Of a stretch of DNA of 10,528 nt, positions 1-10,528 are shown one piece after another. The notes below the pieces were generated by a model. The model saw nothing but the letters and a program-made list of their open reading frames with translations. It ran no database searches and was not told the DNA's origin. Each line of letters starts with the position of its first letter. Position 1 is the stretch's first letter. Both the position numbers and the translations under genes were made by a program. This DNA comes from a virus (taxonomy: Duplodnaviria; Heunggongvirae; Uroviricota; Caudoviricetes), in the IMG/VR virus record IMGVR_UViG_2565956629_000002, positions 1-10,528 of that record. One strand, written 5' to 3'.

Positions 1-63
1 ATTGAGTGGGAATGATTAATAGCTAACTCATAGCAAATCATTTCTATTCAGACACTAACTCAA

Positions 64-94
64 CCCTCTGTTTTTACAGAGGGTTTTTGTTTTT
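64..94 (+). terminator. Rho-independent terminator of an upstream (off-window) plus-strand transcript
   Basis: Stem CCCTCTG (64-70), loop TTTTTA, stem CAGAGGG (77-83), followed by TTTTTGTTTTT. The reverse strand has no T-tract after the hairpin, so it looks unidirectional. Confidence 0.5.
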
Positions 95-143
95 ATGTAT
101 TCATTTCTATTCACTCTACACCATATTTTTCGGCGGTACAGGT

Positions 144-178
144 GACGGTATTACCTTAAAGGTATACTCTCATACCGT
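144..178. promoter_or_regulatory. Nested inverted repeats upstream of int, including an operator-like TTACC-N5-GGTAt site (151-165)
   Basis: GACGGTAT (144-151) and ATACCGTC (171-178) form a perfect 8-bp inverted repeat. Inside it, TTACCttaaaGGTAt matches the operator motif found in the immunity region with one mismatch. Sits about 30 bp upstream of the int start. Confidence 0.3.
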
Positions 179-207
179 CATGAAAATGGTTTCTATACGG
201 GTGAATT

Positions 208-1458
208 GTGCTTACCGATACAAAATTAAAAAACCTCAAGCCGCAGGACAAACTGTACAAGGTCTCCGATCGTGACGGGCTGTATGTAGCTGTGCTTACG
301 TCAGGCACGGTCTCGTTTCGCTACGACTACCGTATCAACGGTCGCCGCGAAACGCTGGTAATCGGGCAGTATGGGCGTGACGGTATCAGCCTGGCAGAAG
401 CGCGAGAAGAACTGATTGCTGCAAAGAAGCTGCTTAAAGCAGGCCAGTCACCGGCTGCGGCTAAACGTGACGGTATCAAAAAGATTCGTGGTGCCGAGAC
501 GTTTGCGGTACATACCGACAGTTATATGAAACACGTCATCCTGGCTGACAGTACCCGCGCAATGAAACAGGCGGTGATCGACCGTGACATACTTCCGGTT
601 CTTGGCAATAAAATGATGGCTGAAATTACCACATCGATGGTTCGTGATTTGTGTGACCGGATTGTCGAACGCGGTGGCCGGGCAACAGCAGTGCAGGCCA
701 GGGAGATCATCAGTAGCGTATACCGTCACGCCAATGACCGTGGTCATGGTTTGTTTAATCCTGCGGCTGACATTAAACCTTCGTCTATCGCCATATTTAA
801 ACCAAGAGAGCGAACACTGACACCAGAAGAAATTGGCCTGTTCTTCCGCACGCTGGATGCCATTGGTGCTATGGGCACTATGAAAATGGCTTTAAAGCTG
901 GTGCTTATCACTATGGTTCGTAAAGGCGAATTCACCAACGCAACGTGGGATGAAATAGATTTTAAAAAATGGACATGGACCATTCCTTCAGACCGCATGA
1001 AGGGAAGCCGGGCGCACGTTATTTACCTGCCTAAACAGGCTCAGGATATATTGGTCGGATTGCAGATGTGCGCTGGTGGAAGTGAATATCTGGTTCCTGG
1101 TCGTTACAATTTCCGGAAGCCATTATCTAATGCCGCGCTGAACTCTCTGATCGACAGAACGGTGAAAATAATAAATGAAGATGGTGAGCATATTCAGGGC
1201 TTCACCGTACACGATATGCGCCGTACAGCCAGTACATTGTTGCATGAGGCTGGTTATCCTTCAGACTGGATTGAAAAGGCTCTGGCACATGAGCAGAAAG
1301 GTGTGCGCGCCGTATATAACAAAGCGGAATACGCCAGACAGCGCGCCTACATGTTGCAGCAGTGGGCCGATATGATTGATTCCTGGATTGACGGGGAGCA
1401 TACGGATCTGATTCCGTTCTCCCCGTCGAAGTTTGAGAAGTGGATGGCGGGGGAATAA
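208..1458 (+). CDS. int: Tyrosine site-specific integrase (P4-like phage integrase family)
   Basis: 416-aa ORF with a GTG start at 208. N-terminus MLTDTKLKNLKP...DGLYV...FRYDYRINGRRE is typical of the P4-type integrase arm-binding domain. C-terminal catalytic signature includes HDMRRT (H-x-x-R) and VRAVYNKAEY (catalytic Tyr), plus the conserved WADMID tail. Confidence 0.93.
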   Translation: MLTDTKLKNLKPQDKLYKVSDRDGLYVAVLTSGTVSFRYDYRINGRRETLVIGQYGRDGISLAEAREELIAAKKLLKAGQSPAAAKRDGIKKIRGAETFAVHTDSYMKHVILADSTRAMKQAVIDRDILPVLGNKMMAEITTSMVRDLCDRIVERGGRATAVQAREIISSVYRHANDRGHGLFNPAADIKPSSIAIFKPRERTLTPEEIGLFFRTLDAIGAMGTMKMALKLVLITMVRKGEFTNATWDEIDFKKWTWTIPSDRMKGSRAHVIYLPKQAQDILVGLQMCAGGSEYLVPGRYNFRKPLSNAALNSLIDRTVKIINEDGEHIQGFTVHDMRRTASTLLHEAGYPSDWIEKALAHEQKGVRAVYNKAEYARQRAYMLQQWADMIDSWIDGEHTDLIPFSPSKFEKWMAGE

Positions 1459-1461
1459 CGT

Positions 1462-1656
1462 TTAATTATTCTGCTGATTTTCTTCCATCTCGGCTTCTGC
1501 TGCCAGTGATTCAATTTTATCTGTGAATATTGCTGACAGTGTTGCAAATTCAGCATCAGTGACAGCGGGAATTGGAACAAACCTGATCCCGCTGTGTGCA
1601 AGCATGTTTGCAGTTTCAAGGCATTTCCTTAAATCTGCTGGTGATGCCCTGTTCAT
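1462..1656 (-). CDS. Small hypothetical protein (64 aa) with acidic C-terminal tail, last gene of the cargo cassette
   Basis: ATG at 1656-1654 overlaps the methyltransferase stop (ATGA overlap). GGGAG lies 8 nt upstream. Protein MNRASPADLRKCLETANMLAHSG...AEAEMEENQQNN. The longer 104-aa track ORF (start 1776) would overlap the MTase out of frame and is disfavoured. Stop is 3 nt from the int stop. Confidence 0.4.
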   Translation of the reverse strand: MNRASPADLRKCLETANMLAHSGIRFVPIPAVTDAEFATLSAIFTDKIESLAAEAEMEENQQNN

Positions 1657-2300
1657 GCTGCACGCTCCCGCCCCTGGTTGTCTGTTGGTGACAGCGGAGC
1701 ATTGCTGAATGCATTTGTTAATCCGGCAATATACAACGCGTATCCAGGGTGTAGTTGCACTGCTGGGTCTTCGCACTGATTACCCCAAACATCGAAGCCA
1801 TGAGACGTTTGGCGGGCGAACAGTTCAATGCGAGAAACATCGCCTAACAATTGCACAAGTTTTTCACGAACGACATCTGGTTTTCTTGAATGCTCAAGCC
1901 GCGGTGCGGTAAATGACTGAACGATACCTGCATTAATGCGCGGAGGTAGTTTTCCCTTTACCGCAAACAGGCAATCTTCACTGTTGGCGCGAGTCATGTG
2001 TCCCATCCCCATAACCAGTTTATCTGGTTGTCGACTACCACATTTTATCCACGTGAAGCCCTTCATGGTCATCAGACGAAATCCCCAGGCTTCAACAACT
2101 TTTAGTGCTTCGAGTGGTTGTGTTGGCACCCACCACATGGCCAACAGACAGTTTTCATCGGCCAAATCCCACACAGGAAGGCGGCAGATATCCAGCACAC
2201 TCATAACCGGATATTTAAAACCGGCACCGCGATTACCATCTGCGGCTTTGTCCCGGTATACCCAGGGTGGATCTGCATAGATTAGCGTGTATTTTTTCAT
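1653..2300 (-). CDS. MT-A70 family N6-adenine DNA methyltransferase (215 aa)
   Basis: Start ATG at 2300 (internal Met of the track ORF) with GGGAG 7 nt upstream. MKKYTLIYADPPWVY carries the DPPW catalytic motif close to the N-terminus, as in MT-A70-type enzymes. ELFARQTSHGFDVWGNQ near the C-terminus is also typical. Start overlaps the stop of the upstream DndB-like gene (ATGA). Confidence 0.85.
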   Translation of the reverse strand: MKKYTLIYADPPWVYRDKAADGNRGAGFKYPVMSVLDICRLPVWDLADENCLLAMWWVPTQPLEALKVVEAWGFRLMTMKGFTWIKCGSRQPDKLVMGMGHMTRANSEDCLFAVKGKLPPRINAGIVQSFTAPRLEHSRKPDVVREKLVQLLGDVSRIELFARQTSHGFDVWGNQCEDPAVQLHPGYALYIAGLTNAFSNAPLSPTDNQGRERAA

Positions 2301-3364
2301 TGTTCTGCTCCCAGACTTCCTTTGGTAAAGGCTTGTATCAGCCTGTTTGCTGCCGCTTTCTGTGCTGCTACATTGGCAATAACTGATAGTTTTTCCTGGC
2401 TTGCTTTCGTGCAGATCCCAACCCAATTATCCATTAGGAAAAAATTCTCTCTTTCTGCGAAGTCAGTATTTGCACATAATGTTTCAATCATTGAAATTAT
2501 TTCTTTTATTGAGTGATTAACCATCATTTGCTGAACAGCATAGCCAAAAGCGTTAATCATCACTGCATGAAACTGGATATATTCTCTTTTGTATTCTGAT
2601 TGCTTTGTACCATGGCGAATTGCTTCTAGTTGTGTAAGACATAACCATGATTCCCATACTGACTCGATGTTACCAATTTCTAGTTTTTTCCCATTATGAA
2701 TACAAAATTTTGATGTTGAATCACTTAATGCTTTGAAACTCACCCACATGTTTGACTTTGACGGAACAACGTTGTGCTCGAAGTCAGTGACTTCTGCAAA
2801 AGTGTCATGTTGCGACAGGAAAGACACCATTTCTTGGGCAACATCGTTTCGTCCGTCATACGCCATATTAATTGCTGCAGATGGTTTTGAAACATTATTA
2901 TTAATGTCAGAAAAGAACTGCTGACGCGCCTTCAAAGGAAGGTTATGCGTAAGCATAAGAGGAATCATAATTGTTTCGCCATAATTACGGCAGAACTCAG
3001 CTAATCCTGCAGCACGATGCTGTCCATCAAATAATTTTATTTCTGCATCCATAGGAAATCTAGCTAAACCGACATTAGTATTTCCAATCTCATGGAACTC
3101 TATTTCTGAGTTACAATTTCCGACCAATGGTGGAACAATAAATGGTTCCTTTTTCTCGTAAGCGTTGACTAAATATTGATAAAACTTTTTTACCCTGGTT
3201 GGATTAATTTCACGTTGAGAACGTTCAAGGGTACTTCCCGTATTGTCGGTTGCCAATACTCTCGATAGTGCTCTTGCTGGTACTGTCATCATAAGTATTA
3301 CAGTGCTTCCCTGCGTTCCTCGTGATGCGGGAAATTCAAAGAAATAATCGCCTACCTTGCTCAT
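2297..3364 (-). CDS. DndB-like DGQHR-domain protein (ParB/Srx-fold, DNA-modification-associated family)
   Basis: Contains the name-giving motif LFDGQHRAAGL and an N-terminal YFFEFPASRGTQG segment as in DndB/DGQHR proteins. Start placed at ATG 3364 (MSKVGDYFF, AGG about 7 nt upstream). An in-frame ATG at 3400 would add 12 N/Q-rich residues and is the alternative. Gene is visibly more AT-rich than its neighbours. Confidence 0.82.
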   Translation of the reverse strand: MSKVGDYFFEFPASRGTQGSTVILMMTVPARALSRVLATDNTGSTLERSQREINPTRVKKFYQYLVNAYEKKEPFIVPPLVGNCNSEIEFHEIGNTNVGLARFPMDAEIKLFDGQHRAAGLAEFCRNYGETIMIPLMLTHNLPLKARQQFFSDINNNVSKPSAAINMAYDGRNDVAQEMVSFLSQHDTFAEVTDFEHNVVPSKSNMWVSFKALSDSTSKFCIHNGKKLEIGNIESVWESWLCLTQLEAIRHGTKQSEYKREYIQFHAVMINAFGYAVQQMMVNHSIKEIISMIETLCANTDFAERENFFLMDNWVGICTKASQEKLSVIANVAAQKAAANRLIQAFTKGSLGAEQ

Positions 3365-3392
3365 GATATTACCTTTTACATTATTGTTTTGA

Positions 3393-3692
3393 TTATTCAT
3401 AAACCACCCCGCAACATCCTATGCCGCTATAGTCGCCACGGCGAAGGCCGTTACCTTTTGTGATACATTGGTCCCTGCGAACCGCGATCCTTGCACGTTC
3501 AACATCACCAGAAGCAACATCCATACACTGAAGCCAAAGGTGAGCGGCAATGCGGAATTGCCCTTTTTTCTCTCTTTCAATCGCGCGTTTTTCGATCTCT
3601 ATCGCCGCAGGAGTAACGGCGACAATCTTTGACGGACTGCGCATTGAAACCTTATTCATGTGATATTTTTCAAGTCGGCTTAACTTTCTCAC
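3393..3692 (-). CDS. Hypothetical small protein, possible first gene of the cargo cassette
   Basis: Only long ORF on either strand in this 300-bp segment. GTG start at 3692 with GAGGG about 9 nt upstream; alternative internal ATG starts at 3659 and 3644. Stop TAA at 3393-3395 lies within the ATGAATAA context of the 3400 alternative start. No recognisable domain. Confidence 0.4.
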   Translation of the reverse strand: MRKLSRLEKYHMNKVSMRSPSKIVAVTPAAIEIEKRAIEREKKGQFRIAAHLWLQCMDVASGDVERARIAVRRDQCITKGNGLRRGDYSGIGCCGVVYE

Positions 3693-3801
3693 TTAATCCA
3701 ACCCTCTCTGAAAATTAATGCCAGCAGATAAAGCCATGCTGAAACAGAGGCCAGGAATAAGTACCATCCTGACCATTTGCTCCAGTGCCTTAGCAGCACA
3801 C

Positions 3802-4050
3802 TCATGCAGCGTTGCTCACAGGACGATATACACGTTGCTGAACAGGAGGCTTTTTACCCTGGAACTCTGCCGGGCTTGCTGCCTGACGTTCATCAAGCCA
3901 ACGCTCAACTTCGTCACGGTTCCATGCGCAGCGTTTGTCAGTGATATACCAGCGTTTAGGAAATTCACCTGCGCGCTCCATACGGTCGATAGTGCTCCAT
4001 GACAGTGGCACCACCGCCAGGAGTTCCTTCTTACCTAATGCACCTTTCAT
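3802..4050 (-). CDS. AlpA/Xis-family excisionase-like DNA-binding protein
   Basis: 82-aa protein with LLAVVPLSWSTIDRMERAGEFPKRWYITDKRCAWNRDEVERWL, the typical MerR-like winged-helix signature of AlpA-type prophage excisionases/regulators. RBS GAGAGGT 5-6 nt upstream of the ATG. Confidence 0.85.
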   Translation of the reverse strand: MKGALGKKELLAVVPLSWSTIDRMERAGEFPKRWYITDKRCAWNRDEVERWLDERQAASPAEFQGKKPPVQQRVYRPVSNAA

Positions 4051-4072
4051 AAATACCTCTCTTGGTTGCAGT

Positions 4073-4091
4073 GCGGCGCGCGTGGCGCCGC
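4073..4091. repeat. GC-rich perfect palindrome (7-bp stem, 5-nt loop) between recT and the excisionase gene
   Basis: GCGGCGC gcgtg GCGCCGC. No T-tract follows on either strand, so it is not a canonical intrinsic terminator. Confidence 0.4.
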
Positions 4092-4099
4092 GGTGGTGG

Positions 4100-5017
4100 T
4101 TACATAGATGTTTCGTTTAATTCTTCCCGACGAACGCTGTAAACGTCGGTGGCTTTTGCCAGCAGTTCGTCATCATCTGAAAGTTTTTGTGCAATGTATT
4201 TGTAAGCCTTATCCAGTTCGGAGACAGTGCTGTAATTCATCGCTGCGCTGGTAAAGGCCATCAGCATTTCTTCTGGATCACGGCTATCCGCTTTACGCGT
4301 TTGCTCATCAGGCTTTTTCACTGTTTTAGCGTTGATCAGACTGTTCATGCTGGATGCTGTGCCGTGCTTTGCCTGACTTCTTGGAGTTACGTCACGTTCA
4401 ATAATGTCAGGTGAGTCGATATATTTACCTTCCATTTCCTCAGCTGTGGCTTGTTGACCAATCTCCGGCCATGCTTTACGTAATGCCTGTGCCTCTGCGC
4501 ATTTTGCCAACTGCGCATAAGGGCGCTTTTTCCACATGGCATTTGGTGCCGATGTGTCACGCCCCCCAGTTGCATAGTTCTCAATCCAGTATTCTTTGGC
4601 GCTAAACTCTACGATTTCCCCGCTTGCCATTCGCTTGCTGACGGTGTACTTACACCACTGAGGGAAGGTAACCTCCACGCCTGAAAGCGTTTGTGTTACA
4701 TCTGGACCGAACTCAGGTTCATTAGCGCCTGCGTAATCGCCGGAACGGTAGGCCTGAATGCGATAAAGTCCAATGCCAGGCATGACCACGTCGCGCCATT
4801 CATTCTTTCCACTCTTCGAGTCTTTAACACTCATTGGTACCAGGTGTACCGGCTTAAGAAGAGGATCGAGTTGACGCGCCCGGCAGTAATCGACTGCCAT
4901 CATTACCGATTCATCTTTTGCCCCAGGGTAAATACTGTTTTTCAGAGCGCTCCATGTAACTTCATCGATTCCCCGAATAGCCAACACATCATTGGTGATT
5001 GCAATTTCGTTGCTCAT
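4100..5017 (-). CDS. recT: RecT-family single-strand annealing recombinase
   Basis: Start ATG at 5017 (internal Met of the track ORF; AGGA 9 nt upstream) overlapping the exonuclease stop (ATGA). A GTG at 5044 is the alternative. SKSGKNEWRDVVMPGIGLYRIQAYRSGDYAG resembles the conserved RecT core as recalled from Rac RecT. Confidence 0.88.
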   Translation of the reverse strand: MSNEIAITNDVLAIRGIDEVTWSALKNSIYPGAKDESVMMAVDYCRARQLDPLLKPVHLVPMSVKDSKSGKNEWRDVVMPGIGLYRIQAYRSGDYAGANEPEFGPDVTQTLSGVEVTFPQWCKYTVSKRMASGEIVEFSAKEYWIENYATGGRDTSAPNAMWKKRPYAQLAKCAEAQALRKAWPEIGQQATAEEMEGKYIDSPDIIERDVTPRSQAKHGTASSMNSLINAKTVKKPDEQTRKADSRDPEEMLMAFTSAAMNYSTVSELDKAYKYIAQKLSDDDELLAKATDVYSVRREELNETSM

Positions 5018-5835
5018 ACGTACATATCCTGTTTGCGTGCCCACTCAGGGCGTTTAATAATTTCCACGCCGCCCCATTCATCGCTGATGCGGCATTCGTG
5101 ATAGGTATTCAGATCCCGGCGGAACAGAGCGTGCCCGGCATCGACATCCGGCGCATCCAGCCCGAACACGCGTACCGGATACCGACCACAATCAATGCTT
5201 TCGCTCACGGCAAGAAAGAAAAAACCATGCGGCTGACCAGTAATCCTCATTGCGCCTTCGCGGTACATTGCGTCCTGCACGTGGTAGCGGAATTCCTCGA
5301 TGTGACGTGCAAAACGGTCCATATCTGCAACCTTTTTCACGTCGACGATCACGTTGTGCTCGTTCAGCCATTTGTCTGGACGAATTCGGCACAACTCACC
5401 CGTCTCTTCATCGTTCCAGTACATTGATGCTTCGCAGTAACCAGGTGCTTCCAGCATCCAGCGTGCCGCCGGGTGAGCCATTGCGCTATCACGCATCAGC
5501 TCCAGTTTCCGCCACTGCTCGGCATCAAGTACCGTAATCCCCATATCCGCTACATCACGAAGAAATGCTTCTTCGTCAGCTTTACCTTGTTTCGTCCGAC
5601 GATCGAACTTCGGTGAAACAATGAAGCGTTTGTCGAATTCTCCAGGCTCCAGAAGCAGACAGTGCAATGCGGTTCCCATATCCAGTGCAGACTTTTTCTC
5701 TTCGTCTTCTGGTGCTGCCTGAACCCATTTAAGAAGCGCCGGATTCTTGGCAACCATGTCCAGTTGCGACTTACTCACGCCGTCACCGGCGTGGTAGTCT
5801 TCGTTGCTGATGTCGAAATAAATTCCCGGTTTCAT
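5014..5835 (-). CDS. RecE-like PD-(D/E)XK exonuclease (exodeoxyribonuclease VIII-like), partner of RecT
   Basis: 273-aa ORF immediately upstream of and translationally coupled to RecT. Sequence features recall the C-terminal nuclease domain of prophage RecE-type exonucleases. ATG at 5835 overlaps the upstream gene stop (ATGA). Confidence 0.8.
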   Translation of the reverse strand: MKPGIYFDISNEDYHAGDGVSKSQLDMVAKNPALLKWVQAAPEDEEKKSALDMGTALHCLLLEPGEFDKRFIVSPKFDRRTKQGKADEEAFLRDVADMGITVLDAEQWRKLELMRDSAMAHPAARWMLEAPGYCEASMYWNDEETGELCRIRPDKWLNEHNVIVDVKKVADMDRFARHIEEFRYHVQDAMYREGAMRITGQPHGFFFLAVSESIDCGRYPVRVFGLDAPDVDAGHALFRRDLNTYHECRISDEWGGVEIIKRPEWARKQDMYV

Positions 5836-6131
5836 GCCGCTTCCCTCTGCCCATCAAGCTGATCCGCCAGATCCCAGCGCGCTATAATTGCCATTGCCTC
5901 GCGCCGGTAGGAATCCATCAGTTCTTCGAACTCAGGGCTGTCTTTAGCAGCCTCCAGCACTTCCTGACGAACGCCTTTGCCTGTTACAACGTCGAAAGTT
6001 GAGGACAGTTGATGAAGTCGGATGCTCTCAATCAGTTCAACTTGTCGGTCATATAGCTGTTCTGACAGGCGGTAGTCCTTGTCGAATGCCAGCATGATTT
6101 TTTGAAGATTTTTCTGCTGATTAACGTTCAT
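5832..6131 (-). CDS. Hypothetical early-left-operon protein (99 aa)
   Basis: Start ATG at 6131 with strong GGAGG 7 nt upstream (an ATG at 6146 is less likely). Stop overlaps the exonuclease start. No recognised domain; occupies a position analogous to gam/abc-type genes in lambdoid phages. Confidence 0.7.
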   Translation of the reverse strand: MNVNQQKNLQKIMLAFDKDYRLSEQLYDRQVELIESIRLHQLSSTFDVVTGKGVRQEVLEAAKDSPEFEELMDSYRREAMAIIARWDLADQLDGQREAA

Positions 6132-6133
6132 TA

Positions 6134-6286
6134 TCAGCCCTCCCATATCTCGTTATCGTTGGCCACATCGCGAGCTTCTTTGCTGACGAAAGCCCACTTA
6201 ATGCCTTCCTGTAAGGTGCGGAACTTCCAGCTCATGAATCCGCATGCAGTAACGCAGTACCAACCGTTGATGATTTTCCACTGCAT
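6134..6286 (-). CDS. Small W/C-rich hypothetical protein (50 aa), first gene after the pL-like promoter
   Basis: Not in the supplied track (under 60 aa). ATG at 6286 with GAGGT 8 nt upstream. Hand translation: MQWKIINGWYCVTACGFMSWKFRTLQEGIKWAFVSKEARDVANDNEIWEG. Stop TGA at 6134-6136 is followed after 2 nt by the next gene's ATG. Confidence 0.5.
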   Translation of the reverse strand: MQWKIINGWYCVTACGFMSWKFRTLQEGIKWAFVSKEARDVANDNEIWEG

Positions 6287-6305
6287 AACTTGTTACCTCG
6301 GTCTG

Positions 6306-6382
6306 TTACCGTTGAGGTAATAATTATGCGTATTTGGTTTGATGTCAATAGATATGAGTTAAAAAAATTACCCATAAGGTAA
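6306..6382. promoter_or_regulatory. OL-like operator pair: two perfect TTACC-N5-GGTAA palindromes flanking the pL-like promoter
   Basis: TTACCgttgaGGTAA (6306-6320) and TTACCcataaGGTAA (6368-6382), 62 bp centre to centre. Confidence 0.6.
6320..6348 (-). promoter_or_regulatory. pL-like early leftward promoter
   Basis: On the minus strand: TTGACA (complement of 6343-6348), 17-nt spacer, AATTAT abutting the 6306-6320 operator. The second operator lies 19 bp upstream of the -35. Confidence 0.45.
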
Positions 6383-6393
6383 TCTTGTTGGCA

Positions 6394-6418
6394 ATAAAAA
6401 AGCCGCCATGAGGCGGCT
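6394..6418 (-). terminator. Rho-independent terminator downstream of the repressor gene
   Basis: Stem AGCCGCC (6401-6407), loop ATGA, stem GGCGGCT (6412-6418). On the minus strand the hairpin is followed by TTTTTTAT (plus-strand A-tract 6394-6400). Confidence 0.65.
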
Positions 6419-6439
6419 TACTTACTGAAAACTATAGTT

Positions 6440-7024
6440 TTATTGTTTGCTTCTTTCGTTCTGGCTGATGACAAATTCAATGTAACTTTCGATCTTTGCC
6501 TTCTCTGTTTCGGGTAACAATGCGTAGCGCGAGCGGTCATAGTTGATAGTCGCAGGGTCGTGCGGGTGAATCAGTAATTCATAGCCGTGACGCCCGAATG
6601 CGGATGCAACATTCTCCAGGGTGGAAATGGAAACGCTGACTTCATTGTTTAACAGGCGGCTGATTGTCACCTGGGCGACGCCGGATGCGCGGTGTAGTTT
6701 TCCCTGCGTTGAAAGGTCGCGGCTTTCGCTCATCCAGCGTTCCAGGTTGTGAGCCGCCAGCTGACCAATGTCGCTTGGGCCGACAGGCTGAAACCCCTCC
6801 TGAGAAAGCGAGCGATCGATATCAAGCCAGTTACGGGGTTTATTGGCGGCAGCTTCAATTTTTCGCGCAACCTGGTCGCCGATAACCTTCTTGCCAAGAG
6901 CCCAGCGGTTTACCAGATTTGCCTGAGTTCCAAGTTTTTCTGCCATCCGCGTCTGAACACCATTGAATTCACGGTCGATCAAGTCGTTGAGATTTTGCCT
7001 GCGGACGTCCTGGATACTTTTCAT
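6440..7024 (-). CDS. Prophage repressor-like protein with two HTH domains and no S24 peptidase domain
   Basis: 194 aa, transcribed divergently from the cro-like gene across an operator-rich region. Two HTH-like segments (QTRMAEKLGTQANLVNRWALGKK and LHRASGVAQVTISRLLNNEVSVS). No LexA-type Ala-Gly cleavage site or Ser/Lys peptidase module recognisable. Confidence 0.8.
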   Translation of the reverse strand: MKSIQDVRRQNLNDLIDREFNGVQTRMAEKLGTQANLVNRWALGKKVIGDQVARKIEAAANKPRNWLDIDRSLSQEGFQPVGPSDIGQLAAHNLERWMSESRDLSTQGKLHRASGVAQVTISRLLNNEVSVSISTLENVASAFGRHGYELLIHPHDPATINYDRSRYALLPETEKAKIESYIEFVISQNERSKQ

Positions 7025-7079
7025 TTTCTGGAAAATCGCCTCATATATGAATCAGTAGATGATTCAATTTAAAGCAATA

Positions 7080-7142
7080 TTACCCAACAGGTAAATGCAC
7101 CTCATAGGTAACTATCCTTGATTTTTGTTACCTTATGGGTGA
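7080..7142. promoter_or_regulatory. OR-like operator cluster between the repressor and cro-like genes
   Basis: TTACCcaacaGGTAA (7080-7094, perfect), gcACCtcataGGTAA (7097-7111, degenerate), TTACCttatgGGTgA (7128-7142, one mismatch). Confidence 0.6.
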
Positions 7143-7153
7143 ATATTTATTAT
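7125..7153 (+). promoter_or_regulatory. pR-like promoter for the cro-like gene
   Basis: TTGTTA (7125-7130), 17-nt spacer, TATTAT (7148-7153). The 7128-7142 operator overlaps the -35 and spacer. Confidence 0.35.
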
Positions 7154-7178
7154 CTGAAATAAATATCAGGCAATAGCT

Positions 7179-7409
7179 ATGAGCGATAACGGACATTTCG
7201 ATTTCAAAAAGCACTGGCTTGCACTTACTCCGGATGAGCGTGAAGCCTTCGCACAGGAAGCCGGAACGACGAGTCACTATATCCAGACTCACTTAACAGG
7301 TAAGCGCAAAATGCCAGGTAAAGTATTGATGAATGGGCTTTTTAAAGCCTGTAAAACAAGACAATGGCTGCGCTCAAAAGCAGAACTGGCATACTTCTTC
7401 TACTCATGA
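7179..7409 (+). CDS. Cro-like small HTH regulator (76 aa)
   Basis: Divergent from the repressor, immediately right of the OR-like operators. HTH-like segment REAFAQEAGTTSHYIQTHLTGKRKM. Followed by a terminator. Confidence 0.75.
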   Translation: MSDNGHFDFKKHWLALTPDEREAFAQEAGTTSHYIQTHLTGKRKMPGKVLMNGLFKACKTRQWLRSKAELAYFFYS

Positions 7410-7431
7410 TATCCAGCTACAACCCTCTGTA

Positions 7432-7453
7432 GACCGCCACCCGGCGGTCTTTT
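7432..7453 (+). terminator. tR1-like rho-independent terminator after the cro-like gene
   Basis: Stem GACCGCC (7432-7438), loop ACCC, stem GGCGGTC (7443-7449), then TTTT (short T-tract). Confidence 0.5.
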
Positions 7454-7557
7454 CATATCTATTCGTACCTCAAAGGTAATAAAAAACCAAATCTGGTTGA
7501 TCAAATTTTCCAATTGTGCAAAATATCCAATATCAATAACAAAAAGAGGCGGAAAAA

Positions 7558-7770
7558 TTGAAGATAGTAACCAGAATGGAGGCCGCAAAAGCCGGGTTAA
7601 ATCGCTATTTCACAGGAAAGCGGTGCCGTCACGGCCATCTCTCTGAAAGGTATGTTCTGAACGGAACATGTGTTGAATGTGCAATGAATAGCGCCAACCG
7701 CCATCGTAATGAATTTGCTTGTGCACTAAAGAGTGCAAGAGGGGAAACCTATGGCAAGCAGCTGGATTAA
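7558..7770 (+). CDS. Small zinc-finger-like protein at the CII position
   Basis: KRCRHGHLSERYVLNGTCVECA has a Cys/His cluster (C-x-H-x-H ... C-x-x-C). TTG start at 7558 with GAGG 8 nt upstream; the first ATG is at 7576 without an obvious SD. 3' end overlaps the next gene. Confidence 0.6.
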   Translation: MKIVTRMEAAKAGLNRYFTGKRCRHGHLSERYVLNGTCVECAMNSANRHRNEFACALKSARGETYGKQLD

Positions 7771-8575
7771 GGTTGAAGTTATCACTCCTGATAAACCTGA
7801 AATTTTTCAGATAGCAGAAATTCTGGGTATTGATCCAGATGCTGTTCTTGGAAAGCTGGTTCGTATATGGGCATGGGCTGACCAGCAAACAATAGACGGT
7901 AACGCTGGCAGCGTTACAAAAGGAGTACTTGATAGACTCGCTTTTATTACAGGATTTGCTGACGCCCTCATTAGCGTCGGATGGCTTGCTTATCATGACG
8001 GCAAACTAATTCTTCCAAACTTTGAGCGACACAATGGAGAATCATCGAAAAAACGTGCACTTACGAATAGAAGAGTGGCAGAGCATCGAAAACGAGTAAC
8101 GCAAAAAGTAACGCCAACAGCGTTACAAAAGGAGTTACCAGAGGAAGAGGAAGATATATATAAAACCCCACACATAGCGCACGTGCGCGAGGGTGCTCCG
8201 ACCAGTGAAGCGAACGGTATGCCGTTGCAGGTGGCTGAACCTGAATTTCTGGATGGCCTGAGTGAACCCATCGGGAAATTTCCGATGACCGATGGCTGGC
8301 ATCCGTCGCCGGATTTTCGACGGCGTGCTGCGCTGTGGGGAACGGCCCTGCCGGAACCGGAATTTACACCTGCTGAACTTGCTGCATTCCGGGATTACTG
8401 GATGGCTGAGGGCAAAGTGTTCACGCAGGTTCAGTGGGAACAAAAATTCGCCAGGCACGTAAATCATATCAGGGGAAAATCAAAAAACGCCGGGAAAAGC
8501 GATGAGCTTGACTGGAATAACACTGACTGGATAGAAGGGGTGTGGGATGAAATCAACTCCAGAACTTCTCAATGA
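7751..8575 (+). CDS. Replication initiator (O-analogue; DUF1376/YdaU-like N-terminus with DnaT-like C-terminus)
   Basis: ATG at 7751 with GAGGGG 8 nt upstream. N-terminus MASSWIKVEV...LGKLVRIWAWADQQ and C-terminus PMTDGWHPSPDF...FRDYWMAEGK recall the prophage replication-initiation family found upstream of P/DnaC-like loaders. Contains internal iteron-like repeats. Confidence 0.75.
   Translation: MASSWIKVEVITPDKPEIFQIAEILGIDPDAVLGKLVRIWAWADQQTIDGNAGSVTKGVLDRLAFITGFADALISVGWLAYHDGKLILPNFERHNGESSKKRALTNRRVAEHRKRVTQKVTPTALQKELPEEEEDIYKTPHIAHVREGAPTSEANGMPLQVAEPEFLDGLSEPIGKFPMTDGWHPSPDFRRRAALWGTALPEPEFTPAELAAFRDYWMAEGKVFTQVQWEQKFARHVNHIRGKSKNAGKSDELDWNNTDWIEGVWDEINSRTSQ
8096..8168. repeat. Iteron-like repeats plus AT-rich tract inside the initiator gene: candidate replication origin
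   Basis: GTAACGC at 8096-8102 and 8108-8114, inverted GCGTTAC at 8120-8126, at a 12-bp period. Followed by GAGGAAGAGGAAG and the AT-rich tract GATATATATAAAA (8156-8168). A similar GTAACGC-N5-GCGTTAC palindrome sits at 7907-7925. Confidence 0.4.
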
Positions 8576-9323
8576 GTACGATCGCTTACGTGAGCATGGT
8601 GTTGCTGTGCATGAAGAGCGGCGTGACAGCAATGGCAAAAAGGAGCATGTCGCTAGAATTTTCAATGAACTATTTGTCCAGTTACAGGCTGCATTTCCCG
8701 CAAGCGTTTCGACCATAAGGGAGCAGAACAAACTTAATGAATTCCGTAAGCAATGGATGCTTGCGTTTCTGGAGAATGGGATCACTACAATGGAACAGGT
8801 TAACGCTGGTATGCGCCACGCCCGCGCCAGTGAGTCTCCGTTCTGGCCGTCGCCAGGGCAATTCATCAAGTGGTGTAAAGACAGCAAGATGGTTCTTGGC
8901 GTCACCATTGACGATGTGATGGCAGAGTTTCACCGGTACAGCAAGGAAAAAAGTTTATATCCTGGTGGTCCCGAAAGATTCCCGTGGCGGCACCCGGTTA
9001 TGTACTGGGTCGTATGTGATACCCGCCGTGCAATGTATCAGCGCCAGCTTAGCGAGATTGAGGTTGAGAAACACGCGCGCAGGCTGCTCGATGATTGGGC
9101 GAAAAAGGTGGCTTCAGGACAGCAGATACCCGATCCGGTGATCAGCATACAGGCAAAGCCAGAACCCATGAGTACGCCTCCGGACACAGGGAGAGACGTT
9201 TACCATCCACCAGGGCGAAGTTTCGGGTGCATGCCTAACGCCGCCACCCTTGGGGGAATAACACCGGCGCAGTGGCTGATGGAGGAATACAGGCGGGGAA
9301 AGGCGGCAGGATTTATCAAGTAA
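8547..9323 (+). CDS. Lambda P-like replication protein (DnaB helicase loader)
   Basis: The stretch QLQAAFPAS...EQNKLNEFRKQWMLAFLENGITTMEQVNAGMRHARAS...PFWPSPGQFIKWC closely parallels the conserved core of lambda P as recalled (FPAS, QW.LAF.ENGITTMEQVNAGMR, PSPGQF..WC). Confidence 0.88.
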   Translation: MKSTPELLNEYDRLREHGVAVHEERRDSNGKKEHVARIFNELFVQLQAAFPASVSTIREQNKLNEFRKQWMLAFLENGITTMEQVNAGMRHARASESPFWPSPGQFIKWCKDSKMVLGVTIDDVMAEFHRYSKEKSLYPGGPERFPWRHPVMYWVVCDTRRAMYQRQLSEIEVEKHARRLLDDWAKKVASGQQIPDPVISIQAKPEPMSTPPDTGRDVYHPPGRSFGCMPNAATLGGITPAQWLMEEYRRGKAAGFIK

Positions 9324-9360
9324 TACCAGCGCGATAGCGCATTTTTTTACGTCTCGATAA

Positions 9361-9437
9361 TTACCTGTGAGGTAATAAAATATTCTAAACTCTATTGATT
9401 TCGTGTCTTATGTGGTTTTTAATTACCTCAGGGGTAA
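9361..9437. promoter_or_regulatory. Third operator pair (O3) flanking a promoter downstream of the replication genes
   Basis: TTACCtgtgaGGTAA (9361-9375) and TTACCtcaggGGTAA (9423-9437), both perfect, 62 bp centre to centre: the same spacing as the OL pair. Confidence 0.55.
9395..9423 (+). promoter_or_regulatory. Candidate repressor-controlled rightward promoter (P3)
   Basis: TTGATT (9395-9400), 17-nt spacer, TTTAAT (9418-9423) abutting the downstream operator. The upstream operator ends 19 bp before the -35, the same geometry as the pL-like promoter. Confidence 0.45.
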
Positions 9438-9440
9438 ATT

Positions 9441-9785
9441 ATGAGAAAACAGATACAGGCTCTTGGTCGACTCAAAACAGGCCAGATGAACAAAACAGAA
9501 TCTGCGTATTGCCAGCACCTTGAGCTGCGTAAACGTGCAGGGGAAATCGCCTGGTATCGATTTGAGGGTATCAAGCTGCGATTAGCTGACAACACGTTCT
9601 ATACGCCCGATTTTGCTGTGATGCTCGCCACCGGCGAGATGGAACTGCACGAAGTGAAAGGTTTCTGGACCGACGACGCCAGGGTGAAAACCAAAGTCGC
9701 CGCAGATCAGTATCCGTTCCGAATCATCGGGGTAACGGTTAAACCAAAGAAAGCAGGTGGTGGCTGGAACATCGAAGAGTTCTGA
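9441..9785 (+). CDS. DUF1064-like phage protein (possible PD-(D/E)XK-type nuclease fold)
   Basis: 114-aa ORF with GGGG about 8 nt upstream. YTPDFAV...EMELHEVKG resembles a D...E.K nuclease-type motif. Family name is from recollection, not a search. Confidence 0.75.
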   Translation: MRKQIQALGRLKTGQMNKTESAYCQHLELRKRAGEIAWYRFEGIKLRLADNTFYTPDFAVMLATGEMELHEVKGFWTDDARVKTKVAADQYPFRIIGVTVKPKKAGGGWNIEEF

Positions 9786-9846
9786 ATCGACGATCTTTTT
9801 AGTTATCAATGTAATCAATAAGTTATGTGGATAAGCGAGGGTAAAG

Positions 9847-10284
9847 ATGGAAAGTAATATCAAAGGGTTAGTTGCCGCCGGGCATGAGATGGCTTCGGAA
9901 CTGAAAGCAGAATGTGGTGCCGTTGATATGCGCAGTGTGGCAAAGCTGATCAGCTATTTGGCAACGCAACTGGAAGTGCAACTGGTGCGTGCTAATGCGC
10001 TGGCTGCGGAGAATGCGCTGGCTCGTAAAGCAGTTCAGGCATTTTGCGATGTTGTTGGCGACAGCACCGAGGTTATCTGCGAGGAGATTGGGCGAGATGG
10101 CGTTCTGGTTATTTTGGAGGCAATGAAGGCAACAGGAAATATGCCAGCCACCGATGCTTTCCTGTCTGAAGTGCGGGCGCAGGGGGTAGAGATGATGCGC
10201 GAACATCCATCAATCAAACTTTGTTCTTTGACGCACATATGTGATGAGTTAGCCGCCCAGCTTCGCAAAGGAGGCAGCCAGTGA
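9847..10284 (+). CDS. Hypothetical phage protein (145 aa)
   Basis: Clean ORF with GAGGGTAAAG RBS 5' of the ATG. Alanine-rich, helical-looking. Stop overlaps the next gene's GTG start (GTGA). Confidence 0.7.
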   Translation: MESNIKGLVAAGHEMASELKAECGAVDMRSVAKLISYLATQLEVQLVRANALAAENALARKAVQAFCDVVGDSTEVICEEIGRDGVLVILEAMKATGNMPATDAFLSEVRAQGVEMMREHPSIKLCSLTHICDELAAQLRKGGSQ

Positions 10285-10528
10285 GCGAAATTAATTACCA
10301 GGCATTGCGTGAGGCGGCAGAGAAAGCAACGTGGGGAGACTGGGACTCATATAAACCACACCGTGGCGCACGTGGTTATGAGGTCCGACTAAGTAGTCAG
10401 GCCATTGCGCAACACGTTCTGAAAAACAACGCTGAATTTATTGCTGCCTTTAATCCAAAGGTTGCTTTGGCACTACTGGATGAACGGGAAAAAAACCAGC
10501 AATACATCAAACTCCGCGACCAGGAGAA
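10281..10528 (+). CDS. Ea22-like family protein, 5' partial (continues beyond window end)
   Basis: GTG start at 10281 with GGAGG 6 nt upstream. Hand translation VSEINYQALREAAEKATWGDWD...ALALLDEREKNQQYIKLRDQE matches the N-terminal signature of enterobacterial prophage Ea22-like proteins as recalled. No stop codon before the window ends. Confidence 0.6.
   Translation, partial: MSEINYQALREAAEKATWGDWDSYKPHRGARGYEVRLSSQAIAQHVLKNNAEFIAAFNPKVALALLDEREKNQQYIKLRDQE

Follow-up and report, generated by a model that had tools for sequence, protein, structure and literature searches.

An SPC32H-type Rep repressor without an autocleavage domain in a guaA-integrated Uetakevirus prophage of E. coli

The window (the whole stretch of viral DNA that was analysed, 10,528 nucleotides) encodes on its minus strand, at 6440-7024, a protein that sequence comparison identifies as the immunity repressor, Rep, of a phiV10/epsilon15-like (Uetakevirus) podovirus prophage at guaA. 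This Rep is very probably a non-cleavable repressor of the kind that is inactivated by a small antirepressor, Ant. The initial annotation had proposed that induction probably does not proceed by RecA-stimulated self-cleavage and may depend on an antirepressor encoded outside the window, and this proposal is supported by the homologous Rep of phage SPC32H and by the ant gene of the closest relatives. SPC32H, whose switch was described by Kim and Ryu (2013, J Virol) and Kim et al. (2016, PNAS), has rep at the same gene position, and the product is likewise a two-domain helical protein with no S24 peptidase. The Rep/Ant switch discussed here is an already characterised Uetakevirus system, and no new mechanism is implied.

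The features that place the repressor in its prophage are these:
1-17, plus strand: attL core ATTGAGTGGGAATGATT, at the exact prophage boundary with which the window begins
6440-7024, minus strand: rep, 194 aa from an ATG start; immunity repressor, orthologue of SPC32H Rep
Rep protein layout: an HTH domain at the N-terminus (residues ~1-70) and an HTH_3-like one at the C-terminus (~85-193), joined by a disordered linker (72-82); no S24 peptidase
7179-7409, plus strand: cro-like gene, 76 aa, divergent from rep; matches phrog_35 "transcriptional repressor" (E=5.6e-13)

The prophage of the window, phiV10 and ZX5 are all guaA-integrating Uetakeviruses with a common att core; the same core is given for ZX5, phiV10 and epsilon15 in PMC9782041. 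Positions 1-10286 of the window differ by a single base from the 40.2-kb guaA-side prophage of E. coli APEC E19035 (locus L001, whose coordinates are used below), while the diverging last 240 bases, which no complete E. coli genome matches above 88%, are the start of a mosaic ead/Ea22-like gene. Gene order is that of SPC32H and epsilon15, with a recombination module (Bet, PD-(D/E)XK exonuclease) to the left of rep and replication genes (DnaT-like, P-like) to the right. The repressor gene, divergent from the cro-like gene and lying between these two modules, does occupy the cI position that had been assigned to it. An Rfam scan of the window gave no RNA family match.

Homology searches tie the protein closely to SPC32H. 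In a phmmer search against PDB sequences, Rep residues 1-190 align with residues 2-197 of 5D50_A (E=4.5e-42), and 5D4Z, which holds the C-terminal domain only, is found at E=4.6e-20; 5D4Z is SPC32H Rep crystallised alone, and 5D50 is SPC32H Rep crystallised together with its antirepressor Ant. An AlphaFold model of the window's Rep, with 47 homologues as input, has 12 helices and 0 strands at a mean pLDDT of 79, with the linker at 72-82 disordered. Foldseek, run with this model against the PDB at E<=0.001, matches only chains of 5D50 and 5D4Z, and the predicted C-terminal domain scores a TM of 0.72 to 5D4Z. The two HTH-like segments that the initial annotation had seen in the translation are confirmed by this all-helical model and by family matches: Pfam HTH_3 covers residues 106-147 (E=1.2e-9), residues 21-61 give a weak match to YdaS_toxin, an HTH family (E=3e-4, under the curated cut-off), and hits to PHROG repressor families span residues 1-76 (E=3e-11 and 4e-10) and 10-184. 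The start of the protein is secure, as M1 K2 S3 I4 are invariant across 47 homologues.

Global identity of the window's Rep is 43% to that of SPC32H, 43% to that of epsilon15 and 78% to that of Enterobacter phage Tyrion; in the comparison with SPC32H the N-terminal domains are 54% identical and the C-terminal (Ant-binding) domains 38%. In DNA, the rep-cro region shares 96.8-98.3% identity with phiV10, vB_EcoP_ZX5, TL-2011b and further Uetakeviruses of E. coli (97.5-97.8% for phiV10 and ZX5, whose repressors are ORF40 and ORF21). Of 5426 complete E. coli genomes, 541 carry the rep region. Overexpression of the ZX5 repressor ORF21, whose source region is 97.8% identical in DNA to the window's rep region, lowered transcription of endolysin by 99.99% and of endolysin and holin by >99.9%, and abolished free phage (PMC9782041).

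Repressors of the LexA and lambda cI (S24) type carry a PF00717 domain and a scissile Ala-Gly (or Cys-Gly) in the linker, whereas the window's Rep has neither. PF00717 gives no Pfam match to Rep even at E<=1, and none is found among 86 Rep homologues, which at full length run to ~190-235 aa. Domain search and structure prediction are thus both without an S24 peptidase fold, in agreement with the first reading of the translation. That reading had also reported no Ala-Gly cleavage site; a dipeptide scan of the whole protein bears this out, with AG, CG, GG and cysteine absent from all 194 residues. Repressors of the ImmR/ImmA type have an adjacent protease gene, and the neighbours of rep differ in this respect: Pfam detects no peptidase or metalloprotease domain (ImmA/IrrE, COG2856 type) in the open reading frames at 5832-6146, 6134-6286, 7179-7409 and 7558-7770. 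The further claim that the operator regions contain no LexA box also stands. The exact motif CTGT-N8-ACAG is absent from the whole window, and the number of sites with at most one mismatch (four) is close to the 3.37 expected; two of the four are within the coding sequences of rep and the cro-like gene, and the operator regions have none.

The sites that Rep would bind can be predicted as the palindrome TTACC-N5-GGTAA. With at most two mismatches it occurs at 15 sites in the window against 3.24 expected, a count reached in 0 of 200 shuffles, and with at most one mismatch at 16 sites in L001 against 0.75 expected. The epsilon15 GenBank record annotates the same 17-bp element, ATTACC-N5-GGTAAT, as "repressor" binding sites. 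Sites of this kind in the window, and the transcription signals around them, are listed here from left to right:
151-165: operator-like palindrome with 1 mismatch; the integrase start codon follows 43 bp downstream
6306-6320: left operator, proximal, a perfect palindrome; shares base 6320 with the -10 and covers the expected leftward transcription start
6320-6348, minus strand: leftward early promoter-like site, TTGACA, 17 nt, AATTAT; 10/12, consensus match only
6368-6382: left operator, distal, a perfect palindrome; 20 bp upstream of the leftward promoter -35
6400-6419, minus strand: intrinsic-terminator-like hairpin and T-run, immediately 3' of rep
7080-7094: right operator site 1, a perfect palindrome, closest to rep
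7097-7111: right operator site 2, GCACC-N5-GGTAA, 2 mismatches; 17 bp from site 1
7125-7153, plus strand: rightward early promoter-like site, TTGTTA, 17 nt, TATTAT; consensus match only
7128-7142: right operator site 3, 1 mismatch; overlaps the rightward promoter -35 and spacer
7431-7450, plus strand: terminator-like hairpin, 3' of the cro-like gene
7465-7479: single operator-like palindrome, 1 mismatch; just past the terminator of the cro-like gene
9361-9437: perfect palindromes at 9361-9375 and 9423-9437, the second operator pair 62 bp apart; between the replication genes and the DUF1064 gene

Epsilon15 and SPC32H share this layout with the window, and Tyrion does so in part. The left pair (6306 and 6368, 62 bp apart), with one site on either side of the promoter-like site that heads the recombination operon, is also present in epsilon15, SPC32H and Tyrion, and a pair of the 9361/9423 type in epsilon15 and SPC32H. 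The right triple (7080, 7097 and 7128, with spacings of 17 and 31 bp) lies between rep and the cro-like gene, and the position of its imperfect second site is filled in epsilon15 and SPC32H as well. SPC32H accordingly has both the same palindrome and the same arrangement as the window, with its 62-bp pairs and a triple spaced by 17 and 30/31 bp. Tyrion has a 1-mismatch palindrome at a distance from its right operators that corresponds to the site at 7465-7479 in the window. A separation of 62 bp is about six helical turns, and would suit a tetramer that grips both palindromes from the same side of the helix. A sigma-70 consensus scan yielded no maintenance promoter for rep and none for ant.

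The initial annotation had advised looking for a LexA-controlled antirepressor elsewhere in the prophage. The window ends at 10,528; in the near-identical APEC E19035 prophage such a gene is present, accompanied by a second gene with an Ant-like domain:
L001 36710-36967, minus strand: ant, 85 aa; immediately ahead of the tailspike gene and ~27.7 kb to the right of rep
L001 34873-35559, minus strand: BRO-N-Ant fusion, 228 aa; BRO-N domain at residues 18-104

The small Ant of L001 matches SPC32H Ant (5D50_E) with E=4.1e-47, at 75 of 85 identical residues (~88%). On the ant strand, 15-34 nt upstream of the ATG, lies the LexA box TACTGTATAAATATACAGTT, which agrees with the consensus at 18 of 20 positions. 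The 40-kb prophage has no other strong LexA box, its next best site scoring 13/20, and 0 of 50 shuffles reach 16/20. (Exact CTGT-N8-ACAG occurrences at L001 17271 and 21819 have GC-rich spacers, score <=12/20 and fall outside the ten best sites; we attribute them to chance.) The box, followed by a GGAG ribosome site and preceded at ~35 bp by a Rep operator, is kept in APEC E19035, phiV10, ZX5, SPC32H, epsilon15 and Tyrion, and a seventh relative, a Klebsiella phage, keeps the arrangement with one core mismatch. SPC32H shares with the window's closest relatives the location of ant beside the tailspike gene, together with the same LexA box and the upstream Rep operator. The records of SPC32H and SPC32N show two differences in the 1610-bp ant region, one of which turns ACAG of the box into AAAG. 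This change agrees with the LexA-box mutation of Kim and Ryu 2013, which reportedly makes Ant constitutive and the phage virulent. A promoter for ant picked by eye, TGGATA-17-TACTGT, which would put the -10 within the box's left half, is a weak match only and was not retained. LexA-controlled antirepressors in Salmonella phages are covered in the review PMC7380047, which cites Kim and Ryu 2013.

Among complete E. coli genomes, 531 have the ant region and 541 the rep region; of 17 E. coli-type phage records with a window-type rep, 16 also have ant. The window's own prophage would be expected to carry ant at the same place, judging by its near-identical relatives; prophages of the Uetakevirus type are mosaic, and the window ends 27 kb short of that position.

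Matches to SPC32H Ant (5D50_E, E=1.1e-13) and phrog_450 cover residues 147-223 of the BRO-N-Ant fusion, a segment with 40% identity to the small Ant. The L001 fusion is 83% identical overall to ORF4 of ZX5, and identical from ZX5 residue 71 onward. ORF4 has been tested as the "anti-repressor" of that phage, where its overexpression cut prophage titres from 10^9 to 10^6 (PMC9782041); it would appear that the ZX5 protein acted as an antirepressor because it ends in an Ant-like domain. The phiV10 and ZX5 records, like PMC9782041, give the small Ant the name "hypothetical protein" and assign the antirepressor role to the BRO-N protein; the ZX5 paper makes no mention of the LexA box. The leader of the fusion gene holds Rfam matches to isrK (67.4 bits) and to C4 antisense RNA (77.8 bits), two predicted Rep operators lie upstream (L001 35831 and 35924), and the scan of L001 shows no LexA box for this gene. 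The P1/P7 immI locus (C4 antisense RNA - icd - ant) and the Gifsy-1 isrK locus offer a likeness, as the BRO-N-Ant gene of the relatives likewise sits behind C4 and isrK; unlike in those loci, the protein encoded downstream has an SPC32H-Ant-like domain at its C-terminal end, and the module lies outside the window. SPC32H and epsilon15 are without it. Most likely, BRO-N-Ant serves as an amplifier or second input and not as the SOS trigger.

In SPC32H, Ant synthesis is reportedly repressed by LexA, and Rep is said not to be cleaved during the SOS response. On that model, a Rep tetramer in the window's prophage would hold the TTACC-N5-GGTAA palindromes through its N-terminal domains, with the C-terminal domain responsible for oligomerisation, and Rep would remain uncut during SOS. 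Host LexA would occupy the near-consensus SOS box ahead of ant, beside the tailspike gene and ~27.7 kb from rep. DNA damage would remove LexA and permit Ant to be made; Ant, as in SPC32H, would then bind the C-terminal domains of Rep, reduce the tetramer to dimers and release the operators. BRO-N-Ant, behind its two Rep operators and the isrK and C4 RNAs, may reinforce the switch once it has begun. PMC9638917, on Kim et al. 2016, describes SPC32H Rep as binding DNA as a tetramer, with DNA-binding pairs drawn from different dimers, and a tetrameric Ant as binding two Rep dimers and breaking the tetramer; the same article gives Rep oligomerisation as concentration dependent. The window's Rep probably binds Ant in the same way; its identity of only 43% to the tested SPC32H protein, and of 38% in the Ant-binding domain, counts against this.

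Other routes to induction have to be weighed against inactivation by the small Ant. The working antirepressor might be BRO-N-Ant, gated by an immI-like C4 RNA and isrK, so that the induction signal would be something other than LexA cleavage. The Ant-like C-terminal domain of the L001 protein, matching 5D50_E and joined to a BRO-N domain, the titre drop caused by its ZX5 counterpart, and the isrK and C4 matches in its leader all favour this view. The gene has two Rep operators upstream and no LexA box, however, so that it should stay silent until Rep has already been inactivated. SPC32H and epsilon15, moreover, are regulated by the small Ant without any such module, and every relative examined keeps the small Ant and its LexA box. 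We consider this alternative improbable.

There is a slimmer chance that induction is mainly spontaneous or driven by concentration, through the dimer-tetramer equilibrium of Rep, that it is independent of SOS, and that ant is dispensable or absent in the window's prophage. ZX5 lysogens do shed phage spontaneously, reaching 10^7 PFU/mL with no inducer (PMC9782041), so SOS need not be the sole route of induction; the concentration dependence given for SPC32H Rep oligomerisation in PMC9638917, and the ~10 more E. coli genomes that have the rep region than have the ant region, point the same way. Against these observations, the near-consensus LexA box has been retained in phages of Escherichia, Salmonella, Enterobacter and Klebsiella, which argues for selection on SOS control. 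Slimmer again is the prospect that Rep is inactivated by proteolysis, either stimulated by RecA at a non-canonical site or carried out by an ImmA-type protease. The one point that could favour it is the linker at 72-82, disordered in the model and hence accessible; Rep has no S24 fold or motif, the neighbouring genes have no peptidase domain by Pfam, and the characterised SPC32H homologue is reportedly (Kim and Ryu 2013) uncut during SOS.

Inactivation of an uncleaved Rep by a LexA-controlled Ant, the reading we prefer, leaves room for a broader and rather doubtful proposal concerning the E. coli prophages. Compared with SPC32H, the window's host is E. coli, and its Rep is 43% identical while the Ant of its relatives is ~88% identical; compared with both SPC32H and epsilon15, the E. 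coli relatives carry the extra BRO-N-Ant fusion with isrK and C4 RNAs. It is conceivable, though we would not count on it, that the E. coli circuit has two tiers undescribed for SPC32H, with a LexA-gated Ant as the trigger and BRO-N-Ant as an amplifier or SOS-independent input, and that Ant acts across divergent Reps. The high conservation of Ant, set against 38% identity in the Ant-binding domain of Rep and an unchanged operator, suggests that one Ant might inactivate divergent Reps. If so, one Ant might cross-induce co-resident prophages of the Uetakevirus type.

Lambda cI occupies the same position as Rep, divergent from cro and flanked by operators, and has the same role of maintenance repressor. 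Rep differs from lambda cI and LexA in that it lacks an S24 domain, an Ala-Gly site and the context of a Ser-Lys dyad. SOS is sensed differently as well: in the Rep/Ant system by LexA, at a distant gene, and for lambda cI by RecA acting on the repressor itself. The Gifsy and Fels-2 antirepressors and Tum of coliphage 186 follow the same logic, in which a non-cleavable repressor is paired with a LexA-controlled antirepressor, and belong to unrelated protein families; SPC32H Ant is said to be structurally distinct from all of these.

The start of rep presents a separate peculiarity. The initial annotation remarked that a convincing Shine-Dalgarno sequence is missing, the nearest GAGG (7042-7039) lying 14 nt before the ATG, and calculation upholds the remark: anti-SD pairing at -17 to -5 amounts to -2.4 kcal/mol, the second weakest among 51 prophage genes, whose median is -6.6. 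Third weakest, at -2.5 kcal/mol, is the cro-like gene, which is also without a Shine-Dalgarno sequence. Orthologues of rep share the trait (SPC32H -2.1, epsilon15 -3.1 and Tyrion +1.7 kcal/mol) although their upstream sequences differ; the absence in rep is real and conserved among orthologues. Most likely it just keeps Rep synthesis low, or means that initiation is SD-independent. The initial annotation's suggestion that it may indicate unusual translation initiation has the conserved absence in its favour, and against it the equally poor cro-like gene and the want of a convincing promoter for a leaderless mRNA. Lambda cI, translated without a Shine-Dalgarno sequence from the leaderless PRM mRNA, is a precedent for weak or SD-independent initiation of a maintenance repressor. 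A leaderless mRNA for rep itself is unsupported, as GATTTT at -13 to -8 is a poor -10, has no -35 and is unconserved in SPC32H or epsilon15.

The value of these assignments lies mainly in annotation, since about one in ten complete E. coli genomes (541/5426) has a repressor of the window's type. RefSeq names for the pair are uninformative, Rep being only a "helix-turn-helix domain-containing protein" and Ant a "hypothetical protein" (in phiV10 and ZX5 as well). The Rep/Ant pair, together with the LexA box, predicts prophages that should be SOS-inducible without repressor cleavage, and some such prophages carry serotype-converting genes or capsule-specific tailspikes.

In the E. coli APEC E19035 prophage locus (L001), the BRO-N-Ant gene has a leader that holds both a C4 antisense RNA and isrK, with a pair of Rep operators further upstream:

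L001 34873-35559 (-), BRO-N-Ant gene, outside the window
L001 35608-35693 (-), C4 antisense RNA (Rfam, 77.8 bits)
L001 35718-35794 (-), isrK (Rfam, 67.4 bits)
L001 35831 and 35924, two Rep operators upstream of the C4/isrK module, 93 bp apart
L012 (locus of E. coli phage ZX5) 1078-1773 (-), BRO-N-Ant gene

The C4 and isrK RNAs in this leader are the point of likeness to P1 immI, and the leader is recognizable as a putative immI-like control module within a Uetakevirus prophage. At its C-terminal end the BRO-N protein carries an SPC32H-Ant-like domain of ~80 residues (E=1.1e-13 against 5D50_E, the Ant chain of Salmonella phage SPC32H), 40% identical to the small Ant. The "anti-repressor" tested in the ZX5 study is this BRO-N-Ant protein (PMC9782041); the true small Ant orthologue is labelled "hypothetical protein" in RefSeq and in the phiV10 and ZX5 records.

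When the E. coli lineage is compared with the Salmonella one, the effector is much better conserved than its target, and the operator motif is the same. E. coli-lineage Ant (L001 36710-36967) is ~88% identical to SPC32H Ant, whereas the window's Rep (6440-7024) shows 43% identity to SPC32H Rep, and 38% in the Ant-binding C-terminal domain. Operator spacing (centre to centre) is fixed in phages of several host genera, at 62 bp for pairs and 17 + 30/31 bp for triples:

window 6306/6368, 7080/7097/7128 and 9361/9423, operator palindromes, the same in the related phage loci L004, L005 and L006
window 151-165, a single operator-like palindrome TTACCTTAAAGGTAT, 1 mismatch

The 62-bp phasing corresponds to about six helical turns, perhaps because one Rep tetramer bridges the two sites. 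Because the integrase start codon lies 43 bp downstream of TTACCTTAAAGGTAT, the palindrome suggests that int is possibly another target of Rep.

An exact CTGT-N8-ACAG at L001 17271-17286, which precedes a Gp49-family gene by ~68 bp, was considered as a LexA box. It falls outside the prophage's ten top-scoring sites, matches the 20-bp LexA consensus at no more than 12/20 positions and has a GC-rich spacer; with this low score and spacer it is probably a chance match.

The L001 prophage is 40.2 kb long and immediately follows guaA:

window 1-17, att core ATTGAGTGGGAATGATT, the window starting exactly at the core start
L001 2271 and 42498, att core

Several poultry isolates are essentially identical to the window over 1-10286; for its last 240 bases (10287-10528, the start of an ead/Ea22-like gene) the best match among the complete E. 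coli genomes searched is 88%. By these comparisons, a mosaic junction lies where the two segments meet.

The L001 prophage, near-identical to the window and resident in an O2:K1:H5 APEC strain, encodes an endosialidase-type tailspike at 37164-40283 (+); K1 capsule is the expected target, whereas phiV10 and epsilon15 have O-antigen-specific tailspikes in this slot. In the early left operon, window 1653-3400 (-) holds two genes, the first for an MT-A70 family methyltransferase and the next for a DGQHR-domain (DndB-like) protein, a pair shared with SPC32H and annotated there as N-6 adenine methyltransferase and DNA-sulfur modification protein.
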